Assembly (NCBI GenBank): GCA_029934175.1
Contig: JAOZMT010000001.1
Location: forward strand, 85,286 to 121,447
Direction of reading: 5' to 3'
Length of the DNA stretch: 36,162 bases
DNA from: Victivallales bacterium
Lineage (GTDB): Bacteria; Verrucomicrobiota; Lentisphaeria; Victivallales; JAUVCU01
Under the pieces are notes generated by a model. That model had not been told where the DNA came from, made no database searches, and was given only the letters and a program-made list of their open reading frames with translations. This document shows positions 19 through 30,686 of the stretch, piece after piece. Numbering within the stretch: the stretch's first letter is position 1; every line of letters starts with the position of its first letter. The translations under genes were made by a program, and so were the position numbers.

Positions 19-1020
19 TTACTTCATCCATTTTTGCTCCTCCTTTTCAATGTGTTTAATTAAATCTATTATACGCATTGAATATGCCCATTCATTATCA
101 TACCATCCTAAAACTTTTATTAAATTATTTCCAATGACATCTGTAAATTCTGCATCAATAACACAAGAATTTGAATTTCCTTTAAAATCACAAGATACCA
201 AAGGAATCTCAGAATAACCCAAAATTCCTTTTAAATAAGTTTTACTTGCTTCTTTGAAAACATCATTAACTTCATTTATATTAGTAGATTTTTTTACTTC
301 CACAACCAAATCAACTAAAGATACGGTGGATGTAGGAACTCTAATAGCAATTCCATTCAATTTTCCTTTTAAATGTGGAAATATTTTTCCTATAGCTTTG
401 GCTGCTCCTGTTGTCGTAGGAATCATAGATAATGCAGCTGCTCTTGCTCTTCTCAAATCTTTGTGTGGTAAATCCAATATTCTTTGGTCATTTGTGTAAG
501 AGTGAACAGTTGTCATCAATCCCTTTTTTATTACAAAATGTTCATCTAATACTTTAACCATTGGTGCTAAACAGTTAGTTGTACAAGATGCATTAGAAAT
601 TATTCTATGTTGTTGTCTATAACTCTGATGATTCACGCCCATAACAACCATTATATCAGCATTTGGAGAAGGTGCTGTTATAATCACCTTTTTTGCATTG
701 TGAAGACCTGCCATTTCTGCTTTGGTAAAAACACCTGTTGATTCTACTACGATATCTACGTTACATTCTTTCCAAGGAATAAGCCTAGGATTTTTTTCAT
801 TGAAAATTTTAATTTCTTTTCCATTTATGGCGAATGCCTTTTCTTTTGCTTCTATATTTGCATTAAATTCACCATAATTAGAATCATATTTTAAAAGATG
901 TACTAGAGTTTTAGTGGGCACTGGTAAATCATTTATTGCTACAAAATCGACACATCTTTCAAATCCTGCTCTAAAAATTAGTCTTCCAATGCGTCCAAAC
1001 CCATTGATACCTACTTTCAT
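19..1020 (-). CDS. gap: glyceraldehyde-3-phosphate dehydrogenase
   Basis: 333 aa. It has the N-terminal NAD-binding motif INGFGRIGR and the catalytic signature SNASCTTNCLAP. The length is typical of GAPDH. Its start overlaps the stop of the upstream ORF by 4 nt. Confidence 0.9.
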   Translation of the reverse strand: MKVGINGFGRIGRLIFRAGFERCVDFVAINDLPVPTKTLVHLLKYDSNYGEFNANIEAKEKAFAINGKEIKIFNEKNPRLIPWKECNVDIVVESTGVFTKAEMAGLHNAKKVIITAPSPNADIMVVMGVNHQSYRQQHRIISNASCTTNCLAPMVKVLDEHFVIKKGLMTTVHSYTNDQRILDLPHKDLRRARAAALSMIPTTTGAAKAIGKIFPHLKGKLNGIAIRVPTSTVSLVDLVVEVKKSTNINEVNDVFKEASKTYLKGILGYSEIPLVSCDFKGNSNSCVIDAEFTDVIGNNLIKVLGWYDNEWAYSMRIIDLIKHIEKEEQKWMK

Positions 1021-1250
1021 TTGTCTCTCCTTAAAAATTCCATTTCTTTATTTCTTTTTAAAATAATTATTTCAGGATCATATTTTTCTATACATTCATT
1101 TATTTGATATAAAGTTGCTCTAATATCTGAAACAATTGGCCCACACTCTATTAATCTACTATTTGGATATTGTGAGAGAATAGAATTTTTCTCTTTTCTA
1201 CTAAACTCACCTGCTAAGACTATATTCTGAATTTTAATTACATTATTCAT
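1017..1250 (-). CDS. hypothetical protein
   Basis: The track ORF begins at GTG 1259. The ATG at 1250 is preceded by AAGGAGTG at good spacing, so 1250 is the preferred start (MNNVIK...). No recognisable motifs. Confidence 0.4.
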   Translation of the reverse strand: MNNVIKIQNIVLAGEFSRKEKNSILSQYPNSRLIECGPIVSDIRATLYQINECIEKYDPEIIILKRNKEMEFLRRDK

Positions 1251-1602
1251 AAGAAACACTCCTTTTATTTATTTTTATTTTAGGTAACTGAAATATTTTA
1301 TTTGAAATGAAAATTCCATGTCCAAAAATTACCCATGTGGAATTTTTCTTATAAAGTTGGGCTTTAGTTAATGAAGCATTATATTCAGCAATATAATAAG
1401 CTTTTTGAAACATTTTTGCTTTTTGATATTGTCCTAACAAATTTGGGTAAGTAAACATTCCTACTGCAATGCATATTATGATAAGTATAAGTGATACAAA
1501 CATAATAATAAAACTTATTGTCGTTCGTGTGTCATAAATGCCTTTTTTGATGCAGTAGGCAAACAAAATTAGACCGATTAAAAAGGAAATTACCCAAATC
1601 AT
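1243..1602 (-). CDS. small membrane protein with two predicted transmembrane helices
   Basis: Two hydrophobic stretches are present (WVISFLIGLILFAYCI and ISFIIMFVSLILIIICIAVGMF). An AGGAGAA ribosome-binding site lies upstream of the ATG. A holin-like role is only a guess. Confidence 0.45.
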   Translation of the reverse strand: MIWVISFLIGLILFAYCIKKGIYDTRTTISFIIMFVSLILIIICIAVGMFTYPNLLGQYQKAKMFQKAYYIAEYNASLTKAQLYKKNSTWVIFGHGIFISNKIFQLPKIKINKRSVSYE

Positions 1603-1611
1603 AAAATTCTC

Positions 1612-1788
1612 CTAAATATCTTCTTCTTCATTTACTGAACCTTCATCAAATTCAAAATCATTATTGGCTTCAATCAATCTTCTATCATAGGGATTTTGAA
1701 TAATGAAATCACCTAACCATCCAACTTGTTTTTTAAGTTGTGGTTTTACAATTTCTTCATCCAAAATTTTTTGATGTAAACTATTCAT
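1612..1788 (-). CDS. hypothetical acidic protein
   Basis: The internal ATG at 1788 is preceded by GGAGG, whereas the track start at 1800 has no ribosome-binding site. The C-terminus is acidic (NEEEDI). Confidence 0.35.
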   Translation of the reverse strand: MNSLHQKILDEEIVKPQLKKQVGWLGDFIIQNPYDRRLIEANNDFEFDEGSVNEEEDI

Positions 1789-1804
1789 CTTAACCTCCAT
1801 AAAA

Positions 1805-2026
1805 TTATATTCTTATAGTAACTCTACAGATATCTTCAATTTCATTACATAATCGTTTGGAAACATTTGTTATTATTTCATAATTCCATTTTGATTTTGG
1901 AATAAGTTCAATAACTTTTCCGTAAATTCGCTTATCTCCTTTTATTCCTACACTACGGACAGGCAAAACTTGCCAAGTACCATCAAATTTTTCTTCTATT
2001 AAAATTTTCTCAACTTTATCCTTCAT
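1805..2026 (-). CDS. stand-alone GMP synthase C-terminal (dimerisation) domain-like protein
   Basis: 73 aa. [21 protein letters not shown] matches the GuaA C-terminal segment [39 protein letters not shown] matches SNRIINEVNGISRVVYDIS. No ATP-pyrophosphatase or glutamine amidotransferase domain is attached. Confidence 0.5.
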   Translation of the reverse strand: [73 protein letters not shown]

Positions 2027-2035
2027 CTTATTTTA

Positions 2036-2064
2036 AAGATAATCATTCTATATTGTATTGTCAA
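2036..2064 (-). promoter_or_regulatory. sigma70-like promoter for the 1805-2026 operon
   Basis: On the minus strand, TTGACA (2064-2059), a 17-nt spacer and TATCTT (2041-2036). The predicted transcript start is only about 3 nt upstream of ATG 2026 and there is no ribosome-binding site, so the mRNA would be nearly leaderless. Confidence 0.35.
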
Positions 2065-2620
2065 GAGCCCAATTCACAATTGTTTCTTCATTTGGAACAT
2101 TTTTGGAGATTATACCTTTCTCAACTATTTTAGCACCAAGTGCTTGCATAATCCAAACAAATACATCAGGTGTGACCTTCCAAGGAACTATATGATCTAA
2201 TTTAAGCACTTCAACTAATGGATAAATACATCCTTCTGAACAAAAATACTGATTTTTCTTTTCCTTCTTCCATTTTAAAAATAAACCAAATCCAGCCCAA
2301 TAGTCAAATTTAGCTTCTTTTTTTACTAAATCAATAAAGAATTTATTTATTAAGACATATTGCGCTGTAGTTACATCTAATGCCCAAATTTCATATTCAT
2401 CGCCTTCTTTGTAGCCATCAAAAATTTTTCTAATTTTCCATCTACAATTTAATAATTCCTTATAGCTATCTGGCCAAACTTCAATTGTATGTTTATCATC
2501 AAAAATAAAAGCTATATGGGAATATTCACCTTGTGTTTCCCATTTAATAACTTTGGCCAACCAATCTGTTCCTTTATAAGCTAAATATCTTATTTGTTTG
2601 GACATTTTACAATTCTCCAT
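2048..2620 (-). CDS. permuted papain-fold / NlpC-P60 superfamily peptidase-like protein (YiiX-like)
   Basis: YSHIAFIF...IEVWPD followed by a distal YFCSEGCIYPL is the His-then-Cys order seen in permuted papain-like amidases. The ATG at 2605 has a better ribosome-binding site (TGGAG) than the ATG at 2620. Confidence 0.45.
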   Translation of the reverse strand: MENCKMSKQIRYLAYKGTDWLAKVIKWETQGEYSHIAFIFDDKHTIEVWPDSYKELLNCRWKIRKIFDGYKEGDEYEIWALDVTTAQYVLINKFFIDLVKKEAKFDYWAGFGLFLKWKKEKKNQYFCSEGCIYPLVEVLKLDHIVPWKVTPDVFVWIMQALGAKIVEKGIISKNVPNEETIVNWALDNTI

Positions 2621-2727
2621 ACTAGTGGTTTTTTACCTGTCCATCTAAAACATCTATTTTTATACTTATAAATAACTCCTGCTTTTCCTTGTTTTGGAAG
2701 TTTAGCAACTGATATTACTTGTGCCAT
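2590..2727 (-). CDS. small basic hypothetical protein (45 aa, below the track cutoff)
   Basis: The ATG at 2727 is preceded by GAGGTGA and lies 1 nt after the psd stop codon. It translates to MAQVISVAKLPKQGKAGVIYKYKNRCFRWTGKKPLVWRIVKCPNK and fills an otherwise empty 108-nt gap. Confidence 0.3.
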   Translation of the reverse strand: MAQVISVAKLPKQGKAGVIYKYKNRCFRWTGKKPLVWRIVKCPNK

Positions 2728-2728
2728 T

Positions 2729-3514
2729 TTATTTCACCTCTTTGAAAAAATTATTATTCAATATTTTCTTTTTTGATTTTATTTTAATTAATGGATCAAT
2801 TCCAGCTTCTACATGAACAAAATCTTCTGTTTTTTTAGGGCTTTTTAATAAGCATTCAAATTCTATTTTATTATTTAATGGAATTACCAATTCTCCTAAA
2901 CTGCCATAACGTATAATAGCAATTCTATCACCTTGATTAACAAATTCACCATCTTCATCTATCATAAAAACATTTGCATTTACTTCTTGATCAGCAATTA
3001 AAACTATATAATATTTAAATCCCAATGGATGGACAACTTCAACAATATCTCTTTGATTATAATATAAAAATTCTAAACTTCTTCTAAATCTTTTTGGATG
3101 TACTATTTGCTTTAATATTTCATTTTCCATGTCACGCATAGATAAATTATTCGTTACTATTGGATCAACGCTCCTTACCTTTACAAATCCATTTGTTGGA
3201 ATTCTACTCATATGGACATCAAAAAAACTTAAGAATATACCAATTACTATGCTAGGTGAATTATAACTTTCATCTTCTAGTATCTTTTTTAAATTATAAA
3301 TTTTTCCTTTGATATCTACCACTTCATCATTTGGATTTATCTTTTCATGTACATATAAAACTGTTCCATCTACTGGACTATACATTATCTCAGGATCATA
3401 ATAAATAGTTCGCATTGGATCACGAAGAAAAACTTGTTCTAACATTCTACGAATGCTGATCTTTCTTAATTTCCTTGTTTCTTCTGAATTTAGCCATTCA
3501 GTTAATGACTTCAT
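2729..3514 (-). CDS. psd: phosphatidylserine decarboxylase family proenzyme
   Basis: Shows YSPVDGTV, FLSFFDVHMSRIPTNG and a C-terminal YGSLGELVIP that matches the G-S self-cleavage/pyruvoyl motif context of the short Psd/Asd type. Confidence 0.7.
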   Translation of the reverse strand: MKSLTEWLNSEETRKLRKISIRRMLEQVFLRDPMRTIYYDPEIMYSPVDGTVLYVHEKINPNDEVVDIKGKIYNLKKILEDESYNSPSIVIGIFLSFFDVHMSRIPTNGFVKVRSVDPIVTNNLSMRDMENEILKQIVHPKRFRRSLEFLYYNQRDIVEVVHPLGFKYYIVLIADQEVNANVFMIDEDGEFVNQGDRIAIIRYGSLGELVIPLNNKIEFECLLKSPKKTEDFVHVEAGIDPLIKIKSKKKILNNNFFKEVK

Positions 3515-3517
3515 TTT

Positions 3518-4537
3518 TTATCCCTTCTTTATTAAATCTGGTGGTAAAAGAATTAAATTTGGATAATTTAAAGGAGTAATAAAACAACTTAGTAATGCTC
3601 CAAGTTTCATTGCTTCACTCAAGTCCAAATACATTACTTCAATTCCAAGTTCATTACAAATTTTTTCTAAAGTTTCGTTCTTTTTAACTTCCAAATCATA
3701 ATATTTATCCTTTTTTGACATCCTATGTAAATTAGATGCATTTATTACCAATGAAGTTCCTAATTTCAAACTATTACATATTCCCATATATGCACAATCT
3801 TTATCAACTGGATAAATGTTAGCATATTTTTCTAATTCACGAATTGGTTTCCTTTTAACTACTTTGGTACATACCATTGCATTTTCATTATCTAGCATAA
3901 AGAATGTACAGTCGCCATGATATAAATACTCATCTACAACTTCACTTTTAATAATATAAATATCATCAAATTGTTTCATTAGCCAATCATGAGTTTCAGG
4001 TTGTGTTCTAACACCATAATTTCCCCAATAAATTGCTTTATCATTATCTATTGTTATAAGTTTAAGTTCAGGATATCCTTCAAAATATGTTTCAGGTTGA
4101 ATAGTATGATAGCCAAAAGATTGTAAAAATTCCCTTGCAACTTCAGATTCAGCTTCTCTACCTTCAGCTCTAAATTTGCTAATTACTATTATATAGTCCT
4201 GTTTTGATGGAAGATACAATGAAACAAATGAATTCACAAATGTGATATCCTGTAAGCCTGGCTTACTTGGCATTAGAAGAATCATAGAATCCGCTGATAT
4301 CACTTGATACAAATCCATCCATTGTGACATAAACTTTTCTTTGTCAATTTTTCTCTCTTCTTTAGGTAGTTCTTTCATCCAAATATTATTAGCTATATTA
4401 AAATCTACATGGAAAGGCGGGGCCATGACAAAAACTTCAATATTTAAATCTGAAGGTTTGGGGCTAAATGGTTTTTCTTCTTTTATAGTTTTTATATAAA
4501 ATCCTTTTCTACAATAAGGACATGTTACAAATTGCAT
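3518..4537 (-). CDS. amidinotransferase-fold (guanidino-group-modifying enzyme superfamily) protein with an N-terminal CxxC
   Basis: The motif order FEGYPEL, then YHGDCTFFML (compare HLD), then a C-terminal KLGALLSCFITPL (compare GGxxC nucleophile) resembles DDAH, arginine deiminase and amidinotransferase proteins. The motifs are divergent. The N-terminus carries CPYC. Confidence 0.4.
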   Translation of the reverse strand: MQFVTCPYCRKGFYIKTIKEEKPFSPKPSDLNIEVFVMAPPFHVDFNIANNIWMKELPKEERKIDKEKFMSQWMDLYQVISADSMILLMPSKPGLQDITFVNSFVSLYLPSKQDYIIVISKFRAEGREAESEVAREFLQSFGYHTIQPETYFEGYPELKLITIDNDKAIYWGNYGVRTQPETHDWLMKQFDDIYIIKSEVVDEYLYHGDCTFFMLDNENAMVCTKVVKRKPIRELEKYANIYPVDKDCAYMGICNSLKLGTSLVINASNLHRMSKKDKYYDLEVKKNETLEKICNELGIEVMYLDLSEAMKLGALLSCFITPLNYPNLILLPPDLIKKG

Positions 4538-4559
4538 TTTATATCCTCCTAAATTTCAA

Positions 4560-5243
4560 CTATGTTTTTGGTATTATATATCCACATTTAGGACATACAA
4601 AGCAATTTTGATAGCAAGATTCATACTTTCTTCCAGTCCATTGCTTCATTAGAAGCATTTCAGATTTCATTTCTGATTTGCAATGAGGACAACAGATTTT
4701 ATCCATTTTATTGGTTGATCCATAACCGCCTTCTCTATTTGTTTGGATGTAATTTTTCATTATTTGCTTAAAATTATTATAAATTTCTTCATCTACAACA
4801 GTTTCAACTTCTTCCTTGCCATAAGTATCAAAAAATAATAATTGAGCAATTCTTTCTTGTGAAGTAATTGGAACTAATCCTCTTATTGCATAACAACTAA
4901 AATGAACAGTATCAAAATAATCGTTGTCTATAACACCACTATCTACAAAAATCAATCCAAATCGATGTGCAGTAGAACTCCTAGGTCTAATAATAGCTTT
5001 AATGGGTGGTGGAACATATAATTTGAAACCCAAAGAAAATTTATAAATGCAATCTTTTGTTGTATAAAGAATGCCATCCTTAGTAAAGATTTTTTGAATT
5101 CCATAGTCATTAGATTCTTCTATTCCTTCACTTAAATCAATTTTACAATCATAACCAACAGCCAATGTAGTCTTCTTTTCTGGCAAAAAATTTGAATCTT
5201 TAACTACAAATACAATTTTGTTTTGCCTAATTAAATCTTGCAT
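4560..5243 (-). CDS. dut: trimeric dUTPase with internal insertions and a C-terminal zinc ribbon
   Basis: All five dUTPase motifs are present: VGYDC, RPRSS, GVIDNDY, RIAQLLF and EGGYGSTN. A C-terminal CCPHC...CPKC four-Cys ribbon follows. An AGGAGG ribosome-binding site is present. Confidence 0.8.
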   Translation of the reverse strand: MQDLIRQNKIVFVVKDSNFLPEKKTTLAVGYDCKIDLSEGIEESNDYGIQKIFTKDGILYTTKDCIYKFSLGFKLYVPPPIKAIIRPRSSTAHRFGLIFVDSGVIDNDYFDTVHFSCYAIRGLVPITSQERIAQLLFFDTYGKEEVETVVDEEIYNNFKQIMKNYIQTNREGGYGSTNKMDKICCPHCKSEMKSEMLLMKQWTGRKYESCYQNCFVCPKCGYIIPKT

Positions 5244-5577: not shown

Positions 5578-5605
5578 ATGATAATTATTTTTTACGAATT
5601 GTCAA
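5578..5605 (-). promoter_or_regulatory. sigma70-like promoter
   Basis: On the minus strand, TTGACA (5605-5600), a 16-nt spacer and TATCAT (5583-5578). It overlaps the stop of the upstream ORF and sits before the ribosome-binding site of the 5558 gene. Confidence 0.4.
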
Positions 5606-6309
5606 GTCCCATACTTCTCAGGAAATTGTAATCCCATTGGATCATGAAGAAAACAAAAAGTTTCTCTTAATCCCAAAACAGTTCTTGAATAAATAGTTGA
5701 ACAATAGCCAAAATGTGACACTATATTGGGAATTGTTACATAATAAGTCATTTTATTTTCCATTAACCATTTTCTAATCAATAAATCTTGAGCATCTTTA
5801 GGTGACACAGGTGGTGTTTTCTTTTGAAATTCGTATAACTGCTCAATTTGCCACAATCTTAACCAAAAACACGTTGAAGAACCATAATATGAATTTGGAA
5901 ATGTTATTAGATGTAATTTAAAATTATTAATAAAACTTTTAATTGTATCTTTTCTATGGCTAAAACCCGAAATAATACTATTTGGGTCTTTTCTTAATTT
6001 TTCAAAATAAAAAACAGCATCAATAAAATTATAGCAAATTATAATATCGTTTTCCAAAACCAAGAACAAATCATCTTTATTATAATTTTCTAATGCATAT
6101 TCAAATGCATGTGCCAAATTTTCTCTTTTCGTAAAATCACCTTTATAATGGAAATCTGCCTTTTTAGGTGCTTCATTTCCACCAAAAACATTTAAAACAT
6201 ATTTATCTTTTTTATTGGGAAGTCGTTGGTCTAATATAGCGAAACAAATATTTCTAGTTTCTTTTCTAATTTCAAAGTTATCGGATGTTAAATTGATTAT
6301 CAATTTCAT
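5602..6309 (-). CDS. putative glycosyltransferase (GT-A-like, weak)
   Basis: It is the last gene of the overlapping sugar cassette. The LFLVLENDII acidic motif is reminiscent of the GT25-type LEDD motif. The assignment rests mainly on context. Confidence 0.3.
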   Translation of the reverse strand: MKLIINLTSDNFEIRKETRNICFAILDQRLPNKKDKYVLNVFGGNEAPKKADFHYKGDFTKRENLAHAFEYALENYNKDDLFLVLENDIIICYNFIDAVFYFEKLRKDPNSIISGFSHRKDTIKSFINNFKLHLITFPNSYYGSSTCFWLRLWQIEQLYEFQKKTPPVSPKDAQDLLIRKWLMENKMTYYVTIPNIVSHFGYCSTIYSRTVLGLRETFCFLHDPMGLQFPEKYGT

Positions 6310-7069
6310 TCTTTAACCAATTCCTTAACTTATATTTGCATTTATAGAGTTTATTTATTTCTTTCAAATTTAAACTTACATTTTTATCACCAACTAATCC
6401 ATTTGTATAAATTATATCTGTATTAAACAATTTTGCTAAATCATTTATACTAATTGTATCTTCAGATCCAACATCAATTTTAGTGCAACATGGAATCTTA
6501 GAAAATAATGCTAAATATATTATTTCACAAACATCCAATACATGAATAAAATTTCTTTTTTGGTTTCCATTGCCATAAACAGTTAATTTTTCATTATTTC
6601 TATATTGTTTTAAAAATCTACTAATTACAGTGCTTTTCTTTTTTAAAAAATCAATACCACCATAAACATTGCTCAATCTAAGTATGTATGATTTTAGACC
6701 AGATTTACATCTGTCGATTGCATAATCTTCCACGCAAGCTTTTGTGTATCCATAATAAGAAGTTCCTTTTGCTGCTTGTGAAGAAGTAAAAATAAACGGA
6801 ATATTTCTTTCTAAACAGTAATTAATTAGTTTATAACTTGCTAAAACGTTGATTTCATATGCTCCTAATACATCCATAATACAATTTTTTAATCCACTTA
6901 TAGCGGCCAAATGAACTATTGCATCTATATTTTCAAATCTATATTTTTCAAACCTTCTTATATCACAACTAGGCAAGTCGCATTCCACAAACTGAATATC
7001 TCTATCTTTTAAAAAATATTTTAGATTAGTGCCAATATAGCCTTTAGAACCTGTAATCAAAACTTTCAT
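6278..7069 (-). CDS. NAD-dependent sugar epimerase/dehydratase (extended SDR)
   Basis: N-terminal VLITGSKGYIGTNL glycine-rich Rossmann motif and a YGYTKA (YxxxK) catalytic motif. Confidence 0.75.
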   Translation of the reverse strand: MKVLITGSKGYIGTNLKYFLKDRDIQFVECDLPSCDIRRFEKYRFENIDAIVHLAAISGLKNCIMDVLGAYEINVLASYKLINYCLERNIPFIFTSSQAAKGTSYYGYTKACVEDYAIDRCKSGLKSYILRLSNVYGGIDFLKKKSTVISRFLKQYRNNEKLTVYGNGNQKRNFIHVLDVCEIIYLALFSKIPCCTKIDVGSEDTISINDLAKLFNTDIIYTNGLVGDKNVSLNLKEINKLYKCKYKLRNWLKNEIDNQFNIR

Positions 7070-7820
7070 TTTTCATAAACTCTTCAATATTTTTTTCAAT
7101 TTGTTTCCAAGGAACATATAAATGTTTATGTCTAAAGCGTGTATTCCAATTGTTTATATATGTTATCGAGAATATTTCATCTAAATTATAAATTTCAAAG
7201 CCTAACATTTTTATTATTTTCATTAAAACAAAATCTGGCCAAGGGCCAGGTTCCCAATATTTCGAAGCTTTAATAACTGCGCTTTTCCTAAAAGCATTTG
7301 CGGAACCACTACCTAAATGAAAGCACTGTTTATATGGATATTTATTGGTATTTTTATATCTTTCATCATATATTAAGCTACATCCAGTTATGGATGCAAT
7401 TTTTTCATTTGAATTTAATCTTTGAATCATTGGTTTGACATTAAATCTAATTTCGTCATCTAAATCCAATGTTCTAACCCAATCATATTTTGCATATAAA
7501 ACAGAATTGATTACTAAATCTTTTGTATGATGCCAATATTTTAATATTTGTTTAGGCTTAAGATGTCTATGAATATTACATTTTATATCTTTTAATTCTA
7601 TTGGTTTTTGTTTGATAATTGTAAAAGGCCAATTTATATCAGCATTTCTATAATGCTTACTTTCTTCAAAAACATTCCAACTACAATTTTCTAATAATAA
7701 AATTTCATCAGCAGGTTGATATTTTATTATACTTCTTATAGCACGATGGAAAAATTGCTTGCTTAATTCAGGATTATTGTAATCACACATTATTAACGTC
7801 TGTGTCAACTTTATATCCAT
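7044..7820 (-). CDS. putative glycosyltransferase (DxD-type, weak)
   Basis: A DLDDE motif and its position inside the translationally coupled sugar cassette. No stronger signature was seen. Confidence 0.3.
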   Translation of the reverse strand: MDIKLTQTLIMCDYNNPELSKQFFHRAIRSIIKYQPADEILLLENCSWNVFEESKHYRNADINWPFTIIKQKPIELKDIKCNIHRHLKPKQILKYWHHTKDLVINSVLYAKYDWVRTLDLDDEIRFNVKPMIQRLNSNEKIASITGCSLIYDERYKNTNKYPYKQCFHLGSGSANAFRKSAVIKASKYWEPGPWPDFVLMKIIKMLGFEIYNLDEIFSITYINNWNTRFRHKHLYVPWKQIEKNIEEFMKNESFDYRF

Positions 7821-8704
7821 TTTAAATCCTCTAAATCATCATCTTTTTTTATAAATCTAATATTGGGATAATCTTTTAAGTAAGTATTGTAAAAGCTTTC
7901 TACTTTATGTGTATACCCTTTAAAAGATATAACATTAATTCCTAATATTGTTGGTATTAAACTACCATGCATTCTATCTGAAACAACAAGCTTAGCCTGA
8001 TGTAACTTATTATATGCAAATTCTTTAGCATATTCTACTGTATCTTTTGGTGAAGAATTATTTAAAATCTTCTTGTCTTTATCATCCCATAACCATCTAA
8101 TTTTGGTATATCCTTTTAGCATTGATAAAACTTTAATCAACACTGGATTGCATTCAGTTTTTGAGTGAATAATCAGTATATTGTTCCTAGGCGTTATAGT
8201 TCCAAATTCATCATATAGTAAAACGCTGGGACATGGTATTAATCTTGTAGGAACTCTTATATGTAATGTCTTTTCAAAGTAATCTTTACTCGTTCTTTCC
8301 CTAAAACAAATATATTTCATTTTTGGTAATTCAAAAAATAATGCACAATGTTTATCAAAATCTTTTACAAAACTTGTTGGCGTAAAAATTATTTCCCTGT
8401 TTTTGGCTTGGAAAAACCATTTAAAGACATCTCGCATTCCTAGAGAAGCTGAACTATATTCACAGCCCCGAATTAATATCGGCAAATTATAATTAGGCAA
8501 ATCTTCATTATATTTACAAATTACATATTCAATATCAAGAATTTCAAATAATTTCATTAAACCACCTGCAATCAAATAATCGCCAACATTGCTTAACTCT
8601 GGAATGGGAAATCCAGCAAAAATCAATCTTTTTGGTAAATCTTTTAAATTAATTATTATTTGATCATATAATATCTTATTTAGTTTTTTTACTCTATTAT
8701 CCAT
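7811..8704 (-). CDS. polysaccharide pyruvyl transferase family protein
   Basis: N-terminal SNVGDYLIAGG and C-terminal VVSDRMHGSLIPTILGINVI match the two conserved blocks of CsaB/WcaK-type pyruvyl transferases. Confidence 0.6.
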   Translation of the reverse strand: MDNRVKKLNKILYDQIIINLKDLPKRLIFAGFPIPELSNVGDYLIAGGLMKLFEILDIEYVICKYNEDLPNYNLPILIRGCEYSSASLGMRDVFKWFFQAKNREIIFTPTSFVKDFDKHCALFFELPKMKYICFRERTSKDYFEKTLHIRVPTRLIPCPSVLLYDEFGTITPRNNILIIHSKTECNPVLIKVLSMLKGYTKIRWLWDDKDKKILNNSSPKDTVEYAKEFAYNKLHQAKLVVSDRMHGSLIPTILGINVISFKGYTHKVESFYNTYLKDYPNIRFIKKDDDLEDLKWI

Positions 8705-9623
8705 TTAACTTTTCCTTAATATAATCTAATCTTTGTCTAATTTTATAACCAACATTGATGACATCAAATTTCATGCCTTGTTTAACATAATCTTTTCTAT
8801 TTTTAACTAATAATGCCTGTTCAATACATTCAATTGGATTAGAGCAAATAAATCCCAACGAACCCAATTGTTCTCTTACGCATCCAACATCTCTAATCAC
8901 AACAATACAGCCCGCATTAAGCGCCTCATATATTACTAAAGGACAGCTTTCCCTATAAGAAGCCAAAACAAAAACTTTACTTCTTTTCATATATTCAGCA
9001 ACTTCTGCTCTAGGTAAATTATAGACAAATCTGATATTGAGACTTTTAAGAAATTTTAAGTCTTGTTGATCTGTAATCGTTGTTATCATTAAGCTATTTG
9101 GATATTTTTTATGAATTTCTATAAAATCAAAACCGCCTTTATCCTTAAATTCATTTGTTCTTATAACAGTTAAAACATTAATATCCCTTTTGATATTTAA
9201 ATCCAAAGGTCTAAAAATAGAATAATCATGTGGCGGAATCATAACCAACGAAGAAATGGGAAGCTGTTTTCCAGTTGTATTGGAATTTGTCCAATATTCA
9301 ATTATATTGCTTGAAATACGAAATCCAGATATTACGCACCAAACTATTGCAGGAATCCTAAATTTATGTGCATAAAAAGCTCTAGTAAATAACAAATCAT
9401 AATCACTTTCGTTTATATTAGATTTAAAATCATTTATATTTAAAAATTTTAAATTGTAAAAATTCAATAAATTTGGAATATCTTCTATTTGGCTATTAAG
9501 TATAGAATCATAATAAATATCAACGTCATATCCTAACGACTTAAAAAAATCTGCAAAAGTCAATATTGTACAAATAGAACCACCAATTCTGAAAATTCTT
9601 GGTTGATAAACTAAAATCTTCAT
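8697..9623 (-). CDS. GT-B glycosyltransferase (GT4/GT1 family)
   Basis: The C-terminal ESCPLVIYEALNAGCIVV matches the E-x7-E / EAmaxG region of GT4 enzymes. Its start overlaps the stop of the UDP-sulfoquinovose synthase gene by 4 nt. Confidence 0.7.
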   Translation of the reverse strand: MKILVYQPRIFRIGGSICTILTFADFFKSLGYDVDIYYDSILNSQIEDIPNLLNFYNLKFLNINDFKSNINESDYDLLFTRAFYAHKFRIPAIVWCVISGFRISSNIIEYWTNSNTTGKQLPISSLVMIPPHDYSIFRPLDLNIKRDINVLTVIRTNEFKDKGGFDFIEIHKKYPNSLMITTITDQQDLKFLKSLNIRFVYNLPRAEVAEYMKRSKVFVLASYRESCPLVIYEALNAGCIVVIRDVGCVREQLGSLGFICSNPIECIEQALLVKNRKDYVKQGMKFDVINVGYKIRQRLDYIKEKLNG

Positions 9624-10768
9624 TTCCAGCTAATCCTTGGTATTAAAACTTCTCTTTTAATTCTATATTTAAATTTCATCATAATCTTGAACAAATACCT
9701 AATTTCTTTTTCCAATGTAGTTGAAGGCCTATAGCCCAATCTTTTCAATTCTCTATGAATTGGATTATACCAATAATTGTCTTCTAGTTCAACCCTTGGG
9801 TTTTTGATGTTTGATTTTCCCACATGAATTCCAAATTCATTTGCAATTTGAATAACTTTATTTGCCACATGTGTGATAGTATATACATTTTCAAATTGAT
9901 TAACAACACGATACTCTCCTTGTTTAGGAGGATTTTCCAAAAGTAAAGTGAAACATTGTACTGCATCAGATAATGGGATAAATCCTCTCTTTTGATATCC
10001 TTTACCATATAAAGTGAGTGGCATTTTTAAAACAGCTTGAGCTACGAACCGATGAACCACAGTTCCAAAAGATTCATCGATGTCGAGACGTGTTAGCAAA
10101 TTATCATCATTCATTTCTTCAGAGCGAATCCCATATATAATACCTTGATGTACATCTGTAATTTTTAAGTTCCAAACTTTAGATCCAAATTCAAGATTTA
10201 TTGCATCACAGGATTTTGTACAATGATAGAACGAGCCACCCAACTTTGGATATGGAATAGTTAATTTTTTGTTATCTATTTCTATTTCGAAATCACCTTC
10301 TGGCGTAAAAGGCAAACCATAAGAATAAACACCCATAGTTCCAGCATGTAAAATATGTGCTTTTGGACAATGTTTTTTAACATTCCAAAGAACTGATAAT
10401 GTTCCCAGTATATTATTTTTATATGTTTCAAGACATGATTTAACACTTTTCATCGAATATGCTGCTGAAGGTTGTTCTGCAAAATGCACTATGCAATCTG
10501 GCTTTTCTTTTTTAAATATATCACTAAGTAATAAAGGATTAATTACATTAATATGATAAAAATTTAATCTATAGCCAAAATGTTTAAAAAATACATTTAA
10601 TCTGTCTTCCATTGAGGGAATTGGAGTGACAGATTGACTTTGCATGCTTTTTACCCATTTTCGTCTATTGAAATTATCGACACCTGAAACTTTGTGACCT
10701 TTGTTTGCTAGATGAAGTGCTAATGTCCATCCGACAAATCCATCGATTCCTAGAATTAAGATTTTCAT
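9620..10768 (-). CDS. sqdB: UDP-sulfoquinovose synthase (SQD1/SqdB/Agl3 family)
   Basis: The resemblance to plant SQD1 runs end to end:
- ILGIDGFVGW matches IGGDGYCGW.
- SVTPIPSMEDRL matches SLTPIASIHDRI.
- VHFAEQPSAAYSM matches VHFGEQRSAPYSM.
- NNILGTLSVL, GTMGVY and FYHCTK (Thr/Tyr/Lys catalytic set) are present.
- LTLYGKGYQKRGF, KNPRVELEDNYWYN and the terminal IPRISWK are present. Confidence 0.85.
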   Translation of the reverse strand: MKILILGIDGFVGWTLALHLANKGHKVSGVDNFNRRKWVKSMQSQSVTPIPSMEDRLNVFFKHFGYRLNFYHINVINPLLLSDIFKKEKPDCIVHFAEQPSAAYSMKSVKSCLETYKNNILGTLSVLWNVKKHCPKAHILHAGTMGVYSYGLPFTPEGDFEIEIDNKKLTIPYPKLGGSFYHCTKSCDAINLEFGSKVWNLKITDVHQGIIYGIRSEEMNDDNLLTRLDIDESFGTVVHRFVAQAVLKMPLTLYGKGYQKRGFIPLSDAVQCFTLLLENPPKQGEYRVVNQFENVYTITHVANKVIQIANEFGIHVGKSNIKNPRVELEDNYWYNPIHRELKRLGYRPSTTLEKEIRYLFKIMMKFKYRIKREVLIPRISWK

Positions 10769-10899
10769 TCATCTTTCACCTTATTAATAATAATTTCTAA
10801 ATGTTTTAATATTTGATAGTAATGATATTTAAGTTCTAAATCTTCAATTTTACTCTCATCTATATTATAAATTAGATTTTGATAAGTTTCTAGTGCCAT
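10765..10899 (-). CDS. small hypothetical protein (44 aa, below the track cutoff)
   Basis: ATG at 10899. The stop TGA overlaps the sqdB ATG (ATGA-type coupling). It fills the gap between the hexulose-phosphate synthase gene and sqdB. The ribosome-binding site is weak. Confidence 0.25.
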   Translation of the reverse strand: MALETYQNLIYNIDESKIEDLELKYHYYQILKHLEIIINKVKDE

Positions 10900-10915
10900 C
10901 AATCCCAACGAATCT

Positions 10916-11560
10916 TTAAATACTTGCTTTTTCATTCGCATATATCTCCTCCTTTATTTTTAAAATTGCTTCTTTTGGATTTTTTGATTTAGTAATATAA
11001 CTACCAAAAATCAATATTTCGGGACTAAATGGAATAAGATATTTAATATCTTTCGGTTTTAAACCGCCAGCTATTGCAATTGGAACTGAAAATGATTTGC
11101 AGAATTTTTCAATTTCACTAAAAGAGATTCCCTTTGAACTTTGAATATCAATTGCAATATGGAAGCTAAAATAATCTGGAAGAAATGGTTCAATTTCTTT
11201 TCCTCTTGAAATTTTTTCCTTGACACCAATGAAATCAACCATTACTTTTTTATCTTGATTTTTTGCTTGCGTAATTGCTGACTCTATCGTTTCTAGCTCG
11301 GCTTGAGCACATACTGTCATTATGTCAGCTCCAGCATCAAATGCTATTTTAGCTTCTAAAGCACCTACATCCATTGTTTTTGTATCAGCTAAAATCAATA
11401 GATAAGGAAATTCTCTCTTCATTTCCTTTATTACTTTTAAACCTTCAGTTTTTAATAAGGGCGTTCCAATCTCAATAATATCTGCATAAGGAGCGACCTG
11501 TTTTGCAATCTTTAATGCTTCATCTTTATTTGGAATATCTAAGGCCACCTGAATTTTCAT
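10916..11560 (-). CDS. hxlA: 3-hexulose-6-phosphate synthase (OMP-decarboxylase suprafamily; the alternative is 3-keto-L-gulonate-6-P decarboxylase)
   Basis: Aligns by eye along its whole length with Bacillus HxlA: LQLALD/IQVALD, IVEIGTP/IIEIGTP, LADMKTMD/LADTKTMD, GADIVT/GADIMT and IAGG. A GGAGGA ribosome-binding site is present. Confidence 0.75.
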   Translation of the reverse strand: MKIQVALDIPNKDEALKIAKQVAPYADIIEIGTPLLKTEGLKVIKEMKREFPYLLILADTKTMDVGALEAKIAFDAGADIMTVCAQAELETIESAITQAKNQDKKVMVDFIGVKEKISRGKEIEPFLPDYFSFHIAIDIQSSKGISFSEIEKFCKSFSVPIAIAGGLKPKDIKYLIPFSPEILIFGSYITKSKNPKEAILKIKEEIYANEKASI

Positions 11561-11777
11561 TATTAGTCCTCCTTAAAATTCCTCTAATAAAACCATTTAA
11601 TTCCGAAATTTCTCTGGAGTGTTGTTCCAATCTCTCATAAATACTAGTTAGATGATTATCAACGATATCCTTTAATCCATTTTGAAGATCATTTCTTAAT
11701 GATCGTATTTGATAAAGAACTATTCCAATAATAACTGTCAATAAACTGCCAACTATTTCTCCAATCCAATTTTCCAT
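11526..11777 (-). CDS. small membrane-anchored protein
   Basis: An N-terminal hydrophobic helix (IVGSLLTVIIGIVLY) is followed by a charged, helical region. A GGAGGAA ribosome-binding site is present. It overlaps the next gene by 35 nt. Confidence 0.4.
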   Translation of the reverse strand: MENWIGEIVGSLLTVIIGIVLYQIRSLRNDLQNGLKDIVDNHLTSIYERLEQHSREISELNGFIRGILRRTNNENSGGLRYSK

Positions 11778-18330: not shown

Positions 18331-18516
18331 TTAATCTCCTTCCATTTTAATACAGTCATTCGGACAACTTTCCACACAATTGCCGCAACCCATACAATCA
18401 TCTGGAAATATTGCCTGAGCTTTATTTCCAACTAATGCCCAAACTCCATTAGGGCAAACTTCAACGCATTCACCACATCCCGTACAGCATTCATCTATGT
18501 GAATGATTTTTTGCAT
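18331..18516 (-). CDS. 2x[4Fe-4S] ferredoxin
   Basis: Two canonical cluster motifs, CTGCGECVEVCP and CMGCGNCVESCP, in 61 aa. Confidence 0.85.
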   Translation of the reverse strand: MQKIIHIDECCTGCGECVEVCPNGVWALVGNKAQAIFPDDCMGCGNCVESCPNDCIKMEGD

Positions 18517-18522
18517 ATTGCT

Positions 18523-18550
18523 AGTGTAAATGAAAAAATAAATTTGTCAA
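18523..18550 (-). promoter_or_regulatory. sigma70-like promoter for the ferredoxin operon (possibly a leaderless transcript)
   Basis: On the minus strand, TTGACA (18550-18545), a 16-nt spacer and TACACT (18528-18523). The predicted start site falls at or next to ATG 18516, and no ribosome-binding site is present. Confidence 0.35.
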
Positions 18551-18559
18551 GAGGCTAAA

Positions 18560-19106
18560 ATGTGAAAGTGCAGGCAGGCAGCGGGCGAAGAATTGCAAAA
18601 CTCCATTTTTTCATAATGTAAAATTTCTGTAAAGATTTTCTTCTGGAATTTACGAAAATGTAGATTTGACGCCGCTTGCGGCGCTTCTTGAACACCCTAA
18701 TTAGTTTTGGATTTAATTACTGAGTATGGAAAAAGCAAGCACTTGGGTATTTGTATAGAAAGCATAGTGTGGATTATCCTAAAAGACTCTGGAACTAGTT
18801 TTTACTAGCAGACCTTCTTATAGTTGTTCGTATGTGCACTGGTGTATGAATGTTTCGTACGGAATATTCGTTTCGAGTGATTTGTTTTTTGAAAGTTTAA
18901 CCAAAATAGCTCTGGTTGTTAAATTTTGACTGGAATGTTATTAGTTCTTCTGTCAGCCTATAAGTACAGGATGGACCCTATAAGACACTGTCGAATGCTT
19001 GGGACATAGTATGTGAATCTGAATGGTTTTATTCGTTCTCAGATGAACCACCTTTGGAATTGGCCTTGAAGGTCACTTGGTTCTCTTTCTGCCTCTTTTT
19101 TTTTCT
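18560..19106 (+). ncRNA. candidate large structured non-coding RNA (unclassified; strand tentative)
   Basis: - The track shows no ORF on either strand, and reading the plus strand I found only short ORFs (longest seen 27 aa).
- G+C is raised: hand counts give 27/60 at 18541-18600, 25/60 at 18661-18720 and 25/60 at 18961-19020.
- The plus strand is G+T-rich.
- Hairpins are present at 18670-18683 (GCCG-CUUG-CGGC), 18788-18812, 19017-19044 and 19045-19083.
- The last hairpin is followed 12 nt downstream by a T9 run at 19096-19104. Confidence 0.4.
19045..19104 (+). terminator. possible intrinsic terminator closing the candidate ncRNA
   Basis: GAACCA (19045-19050) pairs with TGGTTC (19078-19083), and CCTT pairs with AAGG inside the stem. 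Nine T residues follow at 19096-19104. The stem-to-T distance is longer than canonical. Confidence 0.3.
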
Positions 19107-19146
19107 TAGTTTCTTGGTATGGAGTGTTTTTATAAGCTTACAGATT

Positions 19147-19170
19147 AGATATTATATATTATATATATCT
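19147..19170. repeat. AT-rich near-perfect palindrome
   Basis: AGATAT (19147-19152) and ATATCT (19165-19170) flank an alternating (TA)n core that can form a cruciform. Confidence 0.6.
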
Positions 19171-19301
19171 ATAGCTAAAAGACCAAAACTAGTATTATAG
19201 ACTCTCTATAGTTTGTAGCTTATATTGTAGATACCGCATGTTAACAAAATTTGTAAAGTGTTTTGTCAAAGATTTTCTTAAAAACTATATTAAAAATTTA
19301 G

Positions 19302-19378
19302 TATTTAAATTTTAATATTTTAAATTCAACTATTTATTTTTCCCGATTTTTTCGCTATTTAAGTTTTAATATTTTAAA
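19302..19378. repeat. two copies of a 23-nt direct repeat (iteron-like)
   Basis: TATTTAAATTTTAATATTTTAAA (19302-19324) and TATTTAAGTTTTAATATTTTAAA (19356-19378) differ at 1 position. Their starts are 54 nt apart. Confidence 0.7.
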
Positions 19379-19495
19379 ATGAAATATTAAATTTTTATGG
19401 ATTTATTTTTTGACTTTAGTTTTACAAATTTTTAAAATTTTTATATAAAATTTTCTTGCTTTTCTTTTTACTTTAATTTGATTTTTTTCTTCTTG

Positions 19496-19524
19496 TTGAC
19501 ATAATAAAAAATTTATGTTATCCT
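19496..19524 (+). promoter_or_regulatory. rightward sigma70-like promoter P1 (extended -10)
   Basis: TTGACA (19496-19501), a 17-nt spacer, and TGtTATCCT with the -10 element at 19519-19524. Confidence 0.45.
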
Positions 19525-19551
19525 TGACAAAGAAATTTGATATGTTAAAAT
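19524..19551 (+). promoter_or_regulatory. rightward sigma70-like promoter P2 (extended -10)
   Basis: TTGACA (19524-19529), a 16-nt spacer, and TGtTAAAAT with the -10 element at 19546-19551. It is followed by an AAGAGG ribosome-binding site and ATG 19575. Confidence 0.55.
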
Positions 19552-19574
19552 AAAAAAAACTTTAAGAGGTTAAA

Positions 19575-30593: not shown

Positions 30594-30600
30594 TGATAAA

Positions 30601-30673
30601 GCGGGAATAGCTTAATTGGTAAAGCACCTGATTACCAGTCAGGAAGTTGCAGGTTCAAGTCCTGCTTCCCGCT
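30601..30673 (+). tRNA. tRNA-Gly with anticodon ACC
   Basis: The cloverleaf was folded by hand:
- Acceptor stem GCGGGAA/TTCCCGC.
- D-stem GCTT/AAGC.
- Anticodon stem CCTGA/TCAGG with loop TT-ACC-AG.
- T-stem GCAGG/CCTGC with loop TTCAAGT.
- Discriminator U73.
The 5' half is nearly identical to E. coli tRNA-Gly(GCC). No CCA is encoded. Confidence 0.85.
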
Positions 30674-30686
30674 TTGGAGTCTTGTT

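Follow-up and report, generated by a model that had tools for sequence, protein, structure and literature searches.

In a 36,162-nucleotide stretch of DNA filed under a Victivallales bacterium (contig JAOZMT010000001.1, positions 85,286 to 121,447; the window in what follows), a large bacteriophage carries six consecutive minus-strand genes (5602-10768) encoding a member of the SQD1/SqdB/Agl3 family, to which the UDP-sulfoquinovose synthases belong, together with glycosyltransferases (GTs), a polysaccharide pyruvyl transferase and a second short-chain dehydrogenase/reductase (SDR). We put at about 0.5 the probability that these genes form a cytoplasmic phage cassette that assembles a short acidic glycan, with a protein or a lipid-linked glycan as its acceptor, and does not make the sulfolipid sulfoquinovosyl diacylglycerol (SQDG). 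The most interesting feature of the cassette is the altered active site of its first enzyme, which is common to a virus-only clade. The cassette as a whole is a variant within two known groups, the phage cassettes of nucleotide-sugar and glycosyltransferase genes and the virus-borne SQD1-like genes.

The SQD1/SqdB/Agl3 family member and its active site

The first gene of the cassette (gene 1; 9620-10768, minus strand, 382 amino acids (aa)) encodes an extended SDR that matches the SQD1/SqdB/Agl3 family over its full length. Against the NCBIfam profile NF041015 it scored 469.8 bits (E = 6e-141) over profile positions 1-384 of 384, and the next NCBIfam family, dTDP-glucose dehydratase, reached 43.7 bits. 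Similarly, residues 2-382 aligned with the SQD1 structure of Arabidopsis (1qrr; E = 7e-87) with one small gap, and the next fold relative followed at E = 7e-10. The protein has the same length as SQD1, SqdB and Agl3 and aligns with them from end to end, including the C-terminal ...SWK. It carries the motifs GIDGFVG (GxxGxxG), GTMG and YHCTK and retains the catalytic T144, Y181 and K185 as well as H182, which amounts to the pattern [ST]MG...Yx3K together with GxxGxxG and a His beside the catalytic Tyr; [ST]MG...Yx3K has been described as the fingerprint of the UDP-sulfoquinovose synthase class (2022 review, PMC8987622). In a distance-based neighbor-joining tree of 99 sequences with GalE-like outgroups, built without bootstrap and not including Agl3, gene 1 and its five closest relatives formed one clade nested inside the family, near archaeal sequences and distant from the outgroups. 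Profile, structure alignment and tree thus agree in placing gene 1, by sequence, in the SQD1/SqdB/Agl3 family and not with GalE or RmlB, as a first reading made from the sequence alone (the sequence-only reading) had proposed. The score lies under the equivalog cut-off of NF041015 (575 bits), which is exceeded by members of the archaeal type and by those with Pro at position 101 (593-653 bits). Since a bacterial sqdB that overlaps a SqdX-like GT of family 4 (GT4) in Salinicoccus (locus L152) also fails, with 489.5 bits, this cut-off is clade-specific and no test of function, and the sub-threshold score is weak evidence either way.

The closest relatives of gene 1 are all viral. The three nearest clusters (85-89% identity) come from the same phage type; at 59% (L007) the SqdB-like gene adjoins a virion structural gene and is accompanied by another SDR and a glycosyltransferase; at 57% (L005 and L006) it belongs to a phage that also encodes an amidase, a tail spike and a DnaD-like loader, where its sole sugar partner is a 300-aa GT-B enzyme; and at 51% (L008) it sits on a phage-like contig carrying a large glycan cassette. 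No homologue above 47% identity was found among representative cellular genomes, the nearest cellular relative being 47% identical, which distinguishes gene 1 from SQD1, SqdB and Agl3 and, at the level of sequence identity, places it in a virus-only subclade. Additionally, at least 208 IMG/VR contigs encode family members with 37-46% identity to gene 1. These matches required a query made from the family alignment, as the gene 1 protein used singly retrieved nothing from IMG/VR, and a protein search of GenBank phage records with gene 1 returned remote SDRs at 22-30% identity and no family member. Mara et al. (2020, PMC7785012) have also described a putative UDP-sulfoquinovose synthase, carried as an auxiliary gene by a Mu-like viral contig of the Cariaco Basin. 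Both cases involve a virus-borne SQD1-like SDR, the Cariaco one in an anoxic sulfidic setting, and the terminase in the window is likewise Mu-like; however, the Cariaco gene was a single gene read as aiding host N-glycosylation, whereas gene 1 heads a cassette with several transferases, a pyruvyl transferase among them. With that paper and the IMG/VR contigs on record, a phage-borne putative UDP-sulfoquinovose synthase is not new.

What sets gene 1 apart is its active site, which we compared with those of 158 other family members (V147 of gene 1 corresponds to Glu148 of SQD1 and Glu147 of Agl3, and P100 to Arg101). Of the 72 positions with a conservation of 95% or more, gene 1 retains 61; the losses cluster beside the catalytic Thr and Lys, where Glu148 is replaced by Val, Gly150 by Ser, Pro152 is changed and KVHD reads KSCD. 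Four of these substitutions (E147V, G149S, V186S and H187C) are common to gene 1 and its relatives in L001, L007 and L005, at 57-89% identity. In the rest of the family Glu147 and Gly149 are invariant (100%), and conservation is 94.9% at Val186 and 87% at His187; in the IMG/VR-type viral members examined, Glu148 is kept in all but one. The sequence-only reading had described the catalytic Thr/Tyr/Lys blocks as present, which is right for Thr, Tyr, Lys, the adjacent His and the TMG motif but not for Glu148 and its near-invariant neighbours.

Roles of individual residues of this family are quoted in PMC4388408 and PMC8987622. In Agl3, mutagenesis has shown that His95, Arg101, Met145, Glu147, Tyr148, Ser180, Tyr182, Thr185 and Lys186 matter; gene 1 keeps the His, Met, Tyr148, Ser180, Tyr182, Thr and Lys, and has Pro for Arg101 and Val for Glu147. 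Arg101 is essential in Agl3, and gene 1 differs from SQD1 too at this position. Pro is nevertheless the state of most viral and cellular family members and of 110 of the 121 nearest homologues of gene 1, and Pro101 members that keep Glu148 and His183 (Nitrosopumilus, Clostridiales, Bathyarchaeia) pass the 575-bit cut-off. Because such proteins pass, and one of them lies beside an adenosine 5'-phosphosulfate (APS) kinase gene, we rejected the Arg101 to Pro change as a disqualifier, and it is no argument against sulfosugar synthesis. The locus with the kinase, from Bathyarchaeia (L095, 2491-5877), holds the SqdB-like gene followed by a GalE-like, epimerase-type SDR, a 221-aa GT of family 2 (GT2) and the APS kinase, an arrangement suggesting a pathway to a sulfosugar glycan, in which the sulfosugar may be epimerised.

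On this basis gene 1 probably makes a UDP-6-sulfo-hexose, most likely UDP-sulfoquinovose; the latter is plausible but not secure, since invariant residues next to the catalytic Thr and Lys are replaced. We lean slightly towards sulfonate chemistry in the cassette. Two points weigh on the other side: the product of gene 1 may not be a sulfosugar, given Glu148 to Val, G150S and KVHD to KSCD, and family scans found no sulfite-supplying gene (such as one for 3'-phosphoadenosine 5'-phosphosulfate (PAPS) reductase) within the 36-kb window. The best-surviving rival explanation, which we regard as possible though doubtful, is that the virus-only clade changed its chemistry and makes no sulfosugar, with the remaining cassette still building a pyruvylated glycan. 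The reaction of gene 1 might then be that of an oxidoreductase or a 4-epimerase, or the enzyme might release UDP-glucose-5,6-ene; it might also supply the short SDR of the cassette, with a 6-deoxy or other C6-modified sugar as the result. Val stands at the position matching Glu148 in the GalE motif SSATVYG, and one of our GalE-like outgroups has it there. The four clade-wide replacements at near-invariant positions fit such a change, as do the E147A and Y148A variants of Agl3, which lose 85-88% of their dehydration activity, and the release of UDP-glucose-5,6-ene by Agl3 when sulfite is absent. In addition, an SDR partner recurs beside family members, and Pal, which has a 5,6-ene sugar as its characterised substrate, ranks with the best PDB matches of the short SDR. 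Against a changed reaction, gene 1 keeps the TMG fingerprint, His183 and most of the conserved positions, and its clade is nested inside the family; the acid/base residues of the family are listed as unknown (PMC8987622); Agl3 E147A is not dead, the two variants retaining 12-15% of the activity (12% for E147A); and purifying selection keeps the substitutions stable, which would also fit if the loop had been remodelled and the reaction had stayed as it was.

The partner enzymes, the proposed glycan and its possible acceptor

The second gene (8697-9623, minus strand, 308 aa), whose start overlaps the stop of gene 1 by 4 nt, encodes a GT4-like retaining glycosyltransferase of GT-B fold with a short N-domain. 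Its C-terminal domain was recognised by Pfam (Glycos_transf_1, 47.7 bits, residues 193-259 only), and the EX7E motif can be read from the translation as RESCPLVIYE (E224-x7-E232). By sequence, Pfam gave no Glyco_transf_4 match to the N-terminal domain. Compared with the SqdX-like GT4 of L152, the protein shows 24% identity over 118 C-terminal residues and no match in the N-domain. Furthermore, none of 80 cellular sqdB-like genes has a homologue of this GT4 beside it, and its homologues occur only in phage loci (39% identity in L008, 36% in L169 and 29% in L029). The sequence-only reading was therefore sound in seeing a GT-B, GT4-like enzyme next to the SqdB-like gene, on the evidence of the C-terminal domain, and did not hold in linking it to SqdX, to which it shows no specific relation. 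The third gene (7811-8704, minus strand, 297 aa) encodes the polysaccharide pyruvyl transferase proposed earlier, as it matches Pfam PF04230 with 50.1 bits (cut-off 25.3) over profile positions 1-276 of 280, and it also has a weak PDB match to Pvg1 (5ax7, E = 0.006).

The fourth gene (7044-7820, minus strand, 258 aa) matches GT2 in Pfam below the cut-off (21.5 bits) and belongs to a rare, phage-associated family of only six clusters among 1.8 billion representatives, with the conserved motifs WVRxxDxDDE, GSGSxN and EPGPWPD; DLDDE is invariant in the alignment. Its AlphaFold2 model (mean predicted local distance difference test score (pLDDT) 80) has SpsA as the top Foldseek match (E = 7.7e-12, template modelling score 0.60), and the model confirms a predicted GT-A fold (GT2-like) glycosyltransferase with an acidic DxD-type motif. 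The fifth gene (6278-7069, minus strand, 263 aa) encodes the second SDR, a short extended one with an intact YxxxK motif, which Pfam Epimerase (105.6 bits), PHROG 540, annotated as nucleotide-sugar epimerase (151.7 bits), and the best PDB matches (the epimerase-family structures 6wjb and 6wj9, then Pal, 6bwl) bear out. Its homologues share phage loci with SqdB-like genes in L008 (42%) and L029 (34%), and of the 130 loci in which SQD1 positions 101/148/183 are Pro/Glu/His, 16 have a longer relative next to the SqdB-like gene. From these matches it would be a nucleotide-sugar epimerase or reductase type and a candidate modifier of the gene 1 product. The sixth gene (5602-6309, minus strand, 235 aa) encodes a conserved orphan, restricted to its lineage and without family assignment: Pfam, NCBIfam and PDB searches gave no sequence match, one homologous cluster was found (97% identity), the AlphaFold2 model is unusable (pLDDT 40), and profiles showed no relation to the GT-A gene. 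A weak match to PHROG 854 'glucosyltransferase' (E = 0.006) leaves room for the unproven idea that it may be a GT-A-like transferase, so that of the two weak GT-A-like proteins proposed earlier the structure model upholds the fourth gene product and gives no such support to the sixth.

A core of the SqdB-like, GT4, GT-A and short SDR genes recurs in the unrelated phage contigs L008 and L029, where the cassettes add methyltransferases, a GDSL esterase and a UDP-GlcNAc 2-epimerase, which are typical glycan-decoration enzymes. The transferases can be fused: in L029 (2049-4607) a GT2, the rare GT-A and the GT4 form one 852-aa protein, and in L169 (3905-5437) the rare GT-A and a GT2 form a 510-aa protein that is followed by a GT4 homologue. 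In both loci the transferase genes come directly after the gene for an HK97-type major capsid protein, and the L029 cassette as a whole is flanked by the genes for the capsid and the tape measure. The pyruvyl transferase has no homologue in the other phage cassettes. None of the six cassette proteins has a predicted transmembrane segment, and family scans detected no flippase, polymerase or priming transferase within the window.

We propose that the SqdB-family SDR, with tightly bound NAD+, would convert a host UDP-hexose to a C6-modified UDP-sugar through C4 oxidation, 5,6-elimination, addition at C6 and re-reduction; the substrate would most likely be UDP-glucose and the product UDP-sulfoquinovose, formed with host sulfite. 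The short SDR may epimerise or reduce this product or another nucleotide sugar. The GT4-like GT-B enzyme, the GT-A enzyme and possibly the 235-aa orphan would then add sugars successively to a pre-existing acceptor, in an order and from donors that we can only suggest, and the pyruvyl transferase, by analogy with its family, would add a pyruvate ketal from phosphoenolpyruvate to one residue. The outcome would be a short glycan with strong acid groups, namely a carboxylate and, if the first step holds, a sulfonate.

As acceptor we tentatively put a phage virion protein first, by analogy with mycobacteriophages, in which capsid glycosylation by phage-encoded transferases is known (PMC11256854). 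A lipid-linked envelope glycan precursor of the bacterial host comes second, as a possibility that we hold with some doubt, and a lipid is improbable: the fusions of the transferases, the capsid-side position in L029 and L169 and the lack of a transmembrane segment and of a flippase all argue that the acceptor is probably no lipid. Several points weigh against the proposed glycan cassette as a whole. The acceptor is entirely inferred, and to one of the six proteins no function could be assigned. The loci L029 and L169 are themselves relatives (52-54% identity of their capsid proteins), so that the adjacency to capsid genes is effectively a single observation. In the window itself the cassette lies among metabolic genes beside the terminase, not beside capsid genes.

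In a second rival, the main line of the sequence-only reading, the first two genes are a viral sqdB-sqdX pair making SQDG in the host membrane; phosphate sparing or membrane remodelling are possible benefits. The 4-nt overlap of the SqdB-like gene with an EX7E GT4 indeed resembles the overlapping sqdB/GT4 pair of Salinicoccus, the relative in L005 has only one GT-B gene beside its SqdB-like gene, and a phosphatidylserine decarboxylase gene about 2 kb downstream of the cassette gives the phage a gene of lipid metabolism. However, the GT4 has neither specific similarity to a SqdX-like enzyme nor a recognisable Glyco_transf_4 N-domain, it has no homologue beside any of the 80 cellular sqdB-like genes, and its phage homologues, encoded after capsid genes, adjoin GT-A enzymes or are fused with them. 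Two or three extra transferases, the pyruvyl transferase and the second SDR, moreover, have no role in SQDG synthesis. SQDG is thus unlikely, given the extra transferases, their fusions, the missing SqdX signal and the capsid-side genes of L029 and L169.

The third rival, that the cassette glycosylates a hypermodified base of the phage DNA, we consider very improbable: phage DNA glycosyltransferases are GT-B or GT-A enzymes, the cassette lies among nucleotide-metabolism genes (a dUTPase just downstream, NrdD and NrdG upstream) and PHROG places the short SDR family under nucleotide metabolism, but no hydroxymethylase, thymidylate-synthase homologue or base-modifying enzyme was found within the window, PF04230 is known only for enzymes that act on saccharides, and homologous cassettes sit in structural modules.

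Gene packing, selection and the phage genome

The six cassette genes overlap from stop to start by 4, 8, 10, 26 and 32 nt, as claimed earlier. The window has a GC content of 24-34%, and given the frequent stop codons of DNA with 28% GC, six open reading frames (ORFs) of 235-382 aa are not a product of chance. The further claim that they form one coupled operon was right as to the overlaps, but the six-gene boundary is arbitrary, because the overlap chain continues upstream. A 56-aa ORF (10765-10935, minus strand), missing from the ORF list and read from the sequence, overlaps the start of the SqdB-like gene by 4 nt (ATGA) and the 3' end of the next gene, for the 3-hexulose-6-phosphate synthase HxlA (10916-11560, minus strand), by 20 nt; at its position a 58-aa gene is called in L001-L004. 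The HxlA gene overlaps in turn an 83-aa ORF lying 5' of it and present in the ORF list (11526-11777, minus strand), whose protein has a strongly hydrophobic segment (maximum 19-residue hydropathy 2.0). The overlap-coupled block hence comprises nine genes (5602-11777). Since overlapping starts are the rule throughout this phage, the overlaps show tight packing and not a delimited six-gene operon, and a scan for promoter and terminator consensus sequences, which returned 72 promoter-like sites with 77 expected from shuffles, set no operon ends.

Selection was estimated as dN/dS against the syntenic relative L001 (dS ~0.7). All genes gave values of 0.04-0.17, indicating purifying selection, with 0.12 for the SqdB-like gene, 0.17 for the pyruvyl transferase, 0.075 for the 56-aa ORF and 0.038, the minimum of the cassette, for the 235-aa orphan. 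A relative from another sample has an identical gene order and 77-94% protein identity.

HxlA matches TIGR03128 with 221.4 bits, above the 200-bit equivalog cut-off. Its position is kept in L001-L004. Since neither L008 nor L029, the other phage cassettes, includes it, we set it aside as a member of the sugar pathway; its role is more probably that of a separate pentose or nucleotide auxiliary gene, though it is physically coupled to the cassette. The window holds no gene for its 6-phospho-3-hexuloisomerase partner. The nearest named cellular homologues of HxlA are from Nitrospirota (50%) and from vent Campylobacterota (Nitratifractor, Hydrogenimonas and Sulfurovum; 41-45%), which gives a weak hint as to the host. 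That the host is a bacterium is also what an HU-like protein, a bacterial-type glyceraldehyde-3-phosphate dehydrogenase (GAPDH) and the family-A DNA polymerase point to. The samples of the relatives come from deep-sea hydrothermal vents at depths >3000 m.

The element is clearly a large bacteriophage: the window encodes a Mu-like terminase large subunit (TerL), NrdD and NrdG, a family-A DNA polymerase, a clamp loader and a primase-helicase, along with UvsX-like and SbcCD-like proteins, in agreement with the earlier claim that the cassette is phage-borne, and protein clusters of this phage sit on contigs of 93-121 kb. Extension past the window was limited, as the left-edge protein had no record and the right edge matched one 7-kb contig only. 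Beyond the GAPDH region, the closest relative, L001 (20629-21149), carries an intein-containing 654-aa protein that is cut by the end of the locus.

On the 3' side of the cassette there is a run of uncommon auxiliary genes (19-5243), all on the minus strand. It comprises the GAPDH gene (19-1020), a C-terminal fragment of GMP synthase (1805-2026), an enoyl-CoA hydratase-like protein (2048-2620), the phosphatidylserine decarboxylase (2729-3514), an arginine dihydrolase/dimethylargininase-like protein whose apparent start carries a zinc-ribbon-like CxxC motif (3518-4537) and the dUTPase, which has a Cys-rich C-terminal extension (4560-5243). A 119-aa protein (1243-1602, minus strand) has, like the 83-aa one, a strongly hydrophobic segment (maximum 19-residue hydropathy 3.3). 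Elsewhere, a gap of about 1.2 kb (18331-19574) contains no ORF of 70 aa or more; there the direction of transcription flips, the GC skew changes sign, the cumulative skew is at its minimum and GC falls to 24%. The gap holds repeated TATTTAAxTTTTAATATTTTAAA units and, at 19288-19454, palindromes, and we regard it as a candidate for a replication origin or for a region of divergent promoters. In addition, a tRNA-Gly gene (30600-30674, plus strand; Rfam tRNA, 71.5 bits) was called with the anticodon ACC, and A at the wobble position is uncommon among bacterial glycine tRNAs. The family-A DNA polymerase (32861-35242, plus strand; 3879-6260 in L171) contains, by Pfam, a uracil-DNA glycosylase (UDG)-family domain besides its 3'-5' exonuclease and polymerase domains.

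Relation to known systems and biological meaning

The cassette has partial counterparts in several known systems. As in the sqdB-sqdX and SQD1-SQD2 pairs, a synthase-like gene is followed by an overlapping gene for a retaining GT4-type transferase; unlike in them, the transferase is not of the SqdX type, another four glycan-type genes are coupled to the two and there is no sign of a lipid acceptor. The archaeal N-glycan pathway with Agl3 is similar in that a family member feeds a glycan and not a lipid, and the clade of gene 1 lies near archaeal sequences. In the Bathyarchaeial locus the synthase has an epimerase-type SDR, a small GT2 and an APS kinase as neighbours. However, the host here would be bacterial, and no dolichol-type GT2 or oligosaccharyltransferase accompanies the cassette. 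The pyruvyl transferase shares with CsaB, WcaK and Pvg1 the PF04230 domain over its full length and, with Pvg1, the weak structure match, but it is very divergent, has no NCBIfam match and is phage-borne. Gtr-type seroconversion cassettes, with a GtrA flippase and a GtrC-type transferase, differ from the six cassette proteins, which have no predicted transmembrane segment.

The virion glycosylation of Che8-type mycobacteriophages, as far as PMC11256854 describes it in citing Freeman et al. 2023, likewise involves soluble phage transferases and no export machinery, and in L029 and L169 the capsid gene is immediately followed by homologues of the cassette transferases. In the sole mycobacteriophage layout compared, that of Maravista (PMC11256854), the genes for glycosyltransferases are placed close to the genomic 3' end. 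The cassette enzymes have no sequence relationship to those of mycobacteriophages, and the cassette brings its own modified nucleotide sugar and a pyruvyl transferase.

If gene 1 makes UDP-sulfoquinovose, this phage would build sulfonated, pyruvylated glycans with its own enzymes. Sulfoquinovose biology would then reach the viruses of vent bacteria, beyond phototroph lipids and archaeal N-glycans, and a link to the sulfur cycle would be added to viral auxiliary metabolism. If instead the altered active site stands for new chemistry, the virus-only clade would be a compact place to look for a new nucleotide-sugar activity. A more speculative, and in our view unlikely, outcome is that the virus-only branch remodelled its loop, makes an undescribed C6 adduct or a sugar derived from the 5,6-ene and, together with pyruvylation, coats the virion in a strongly acidic glycan; if true, the sugar chemistry would be new, and so would this kind of modification of a phage particle. 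The recurring phage module, for its part, offers a lead to the glycosylation of virions or host surfaces outside mycobacteriophages.

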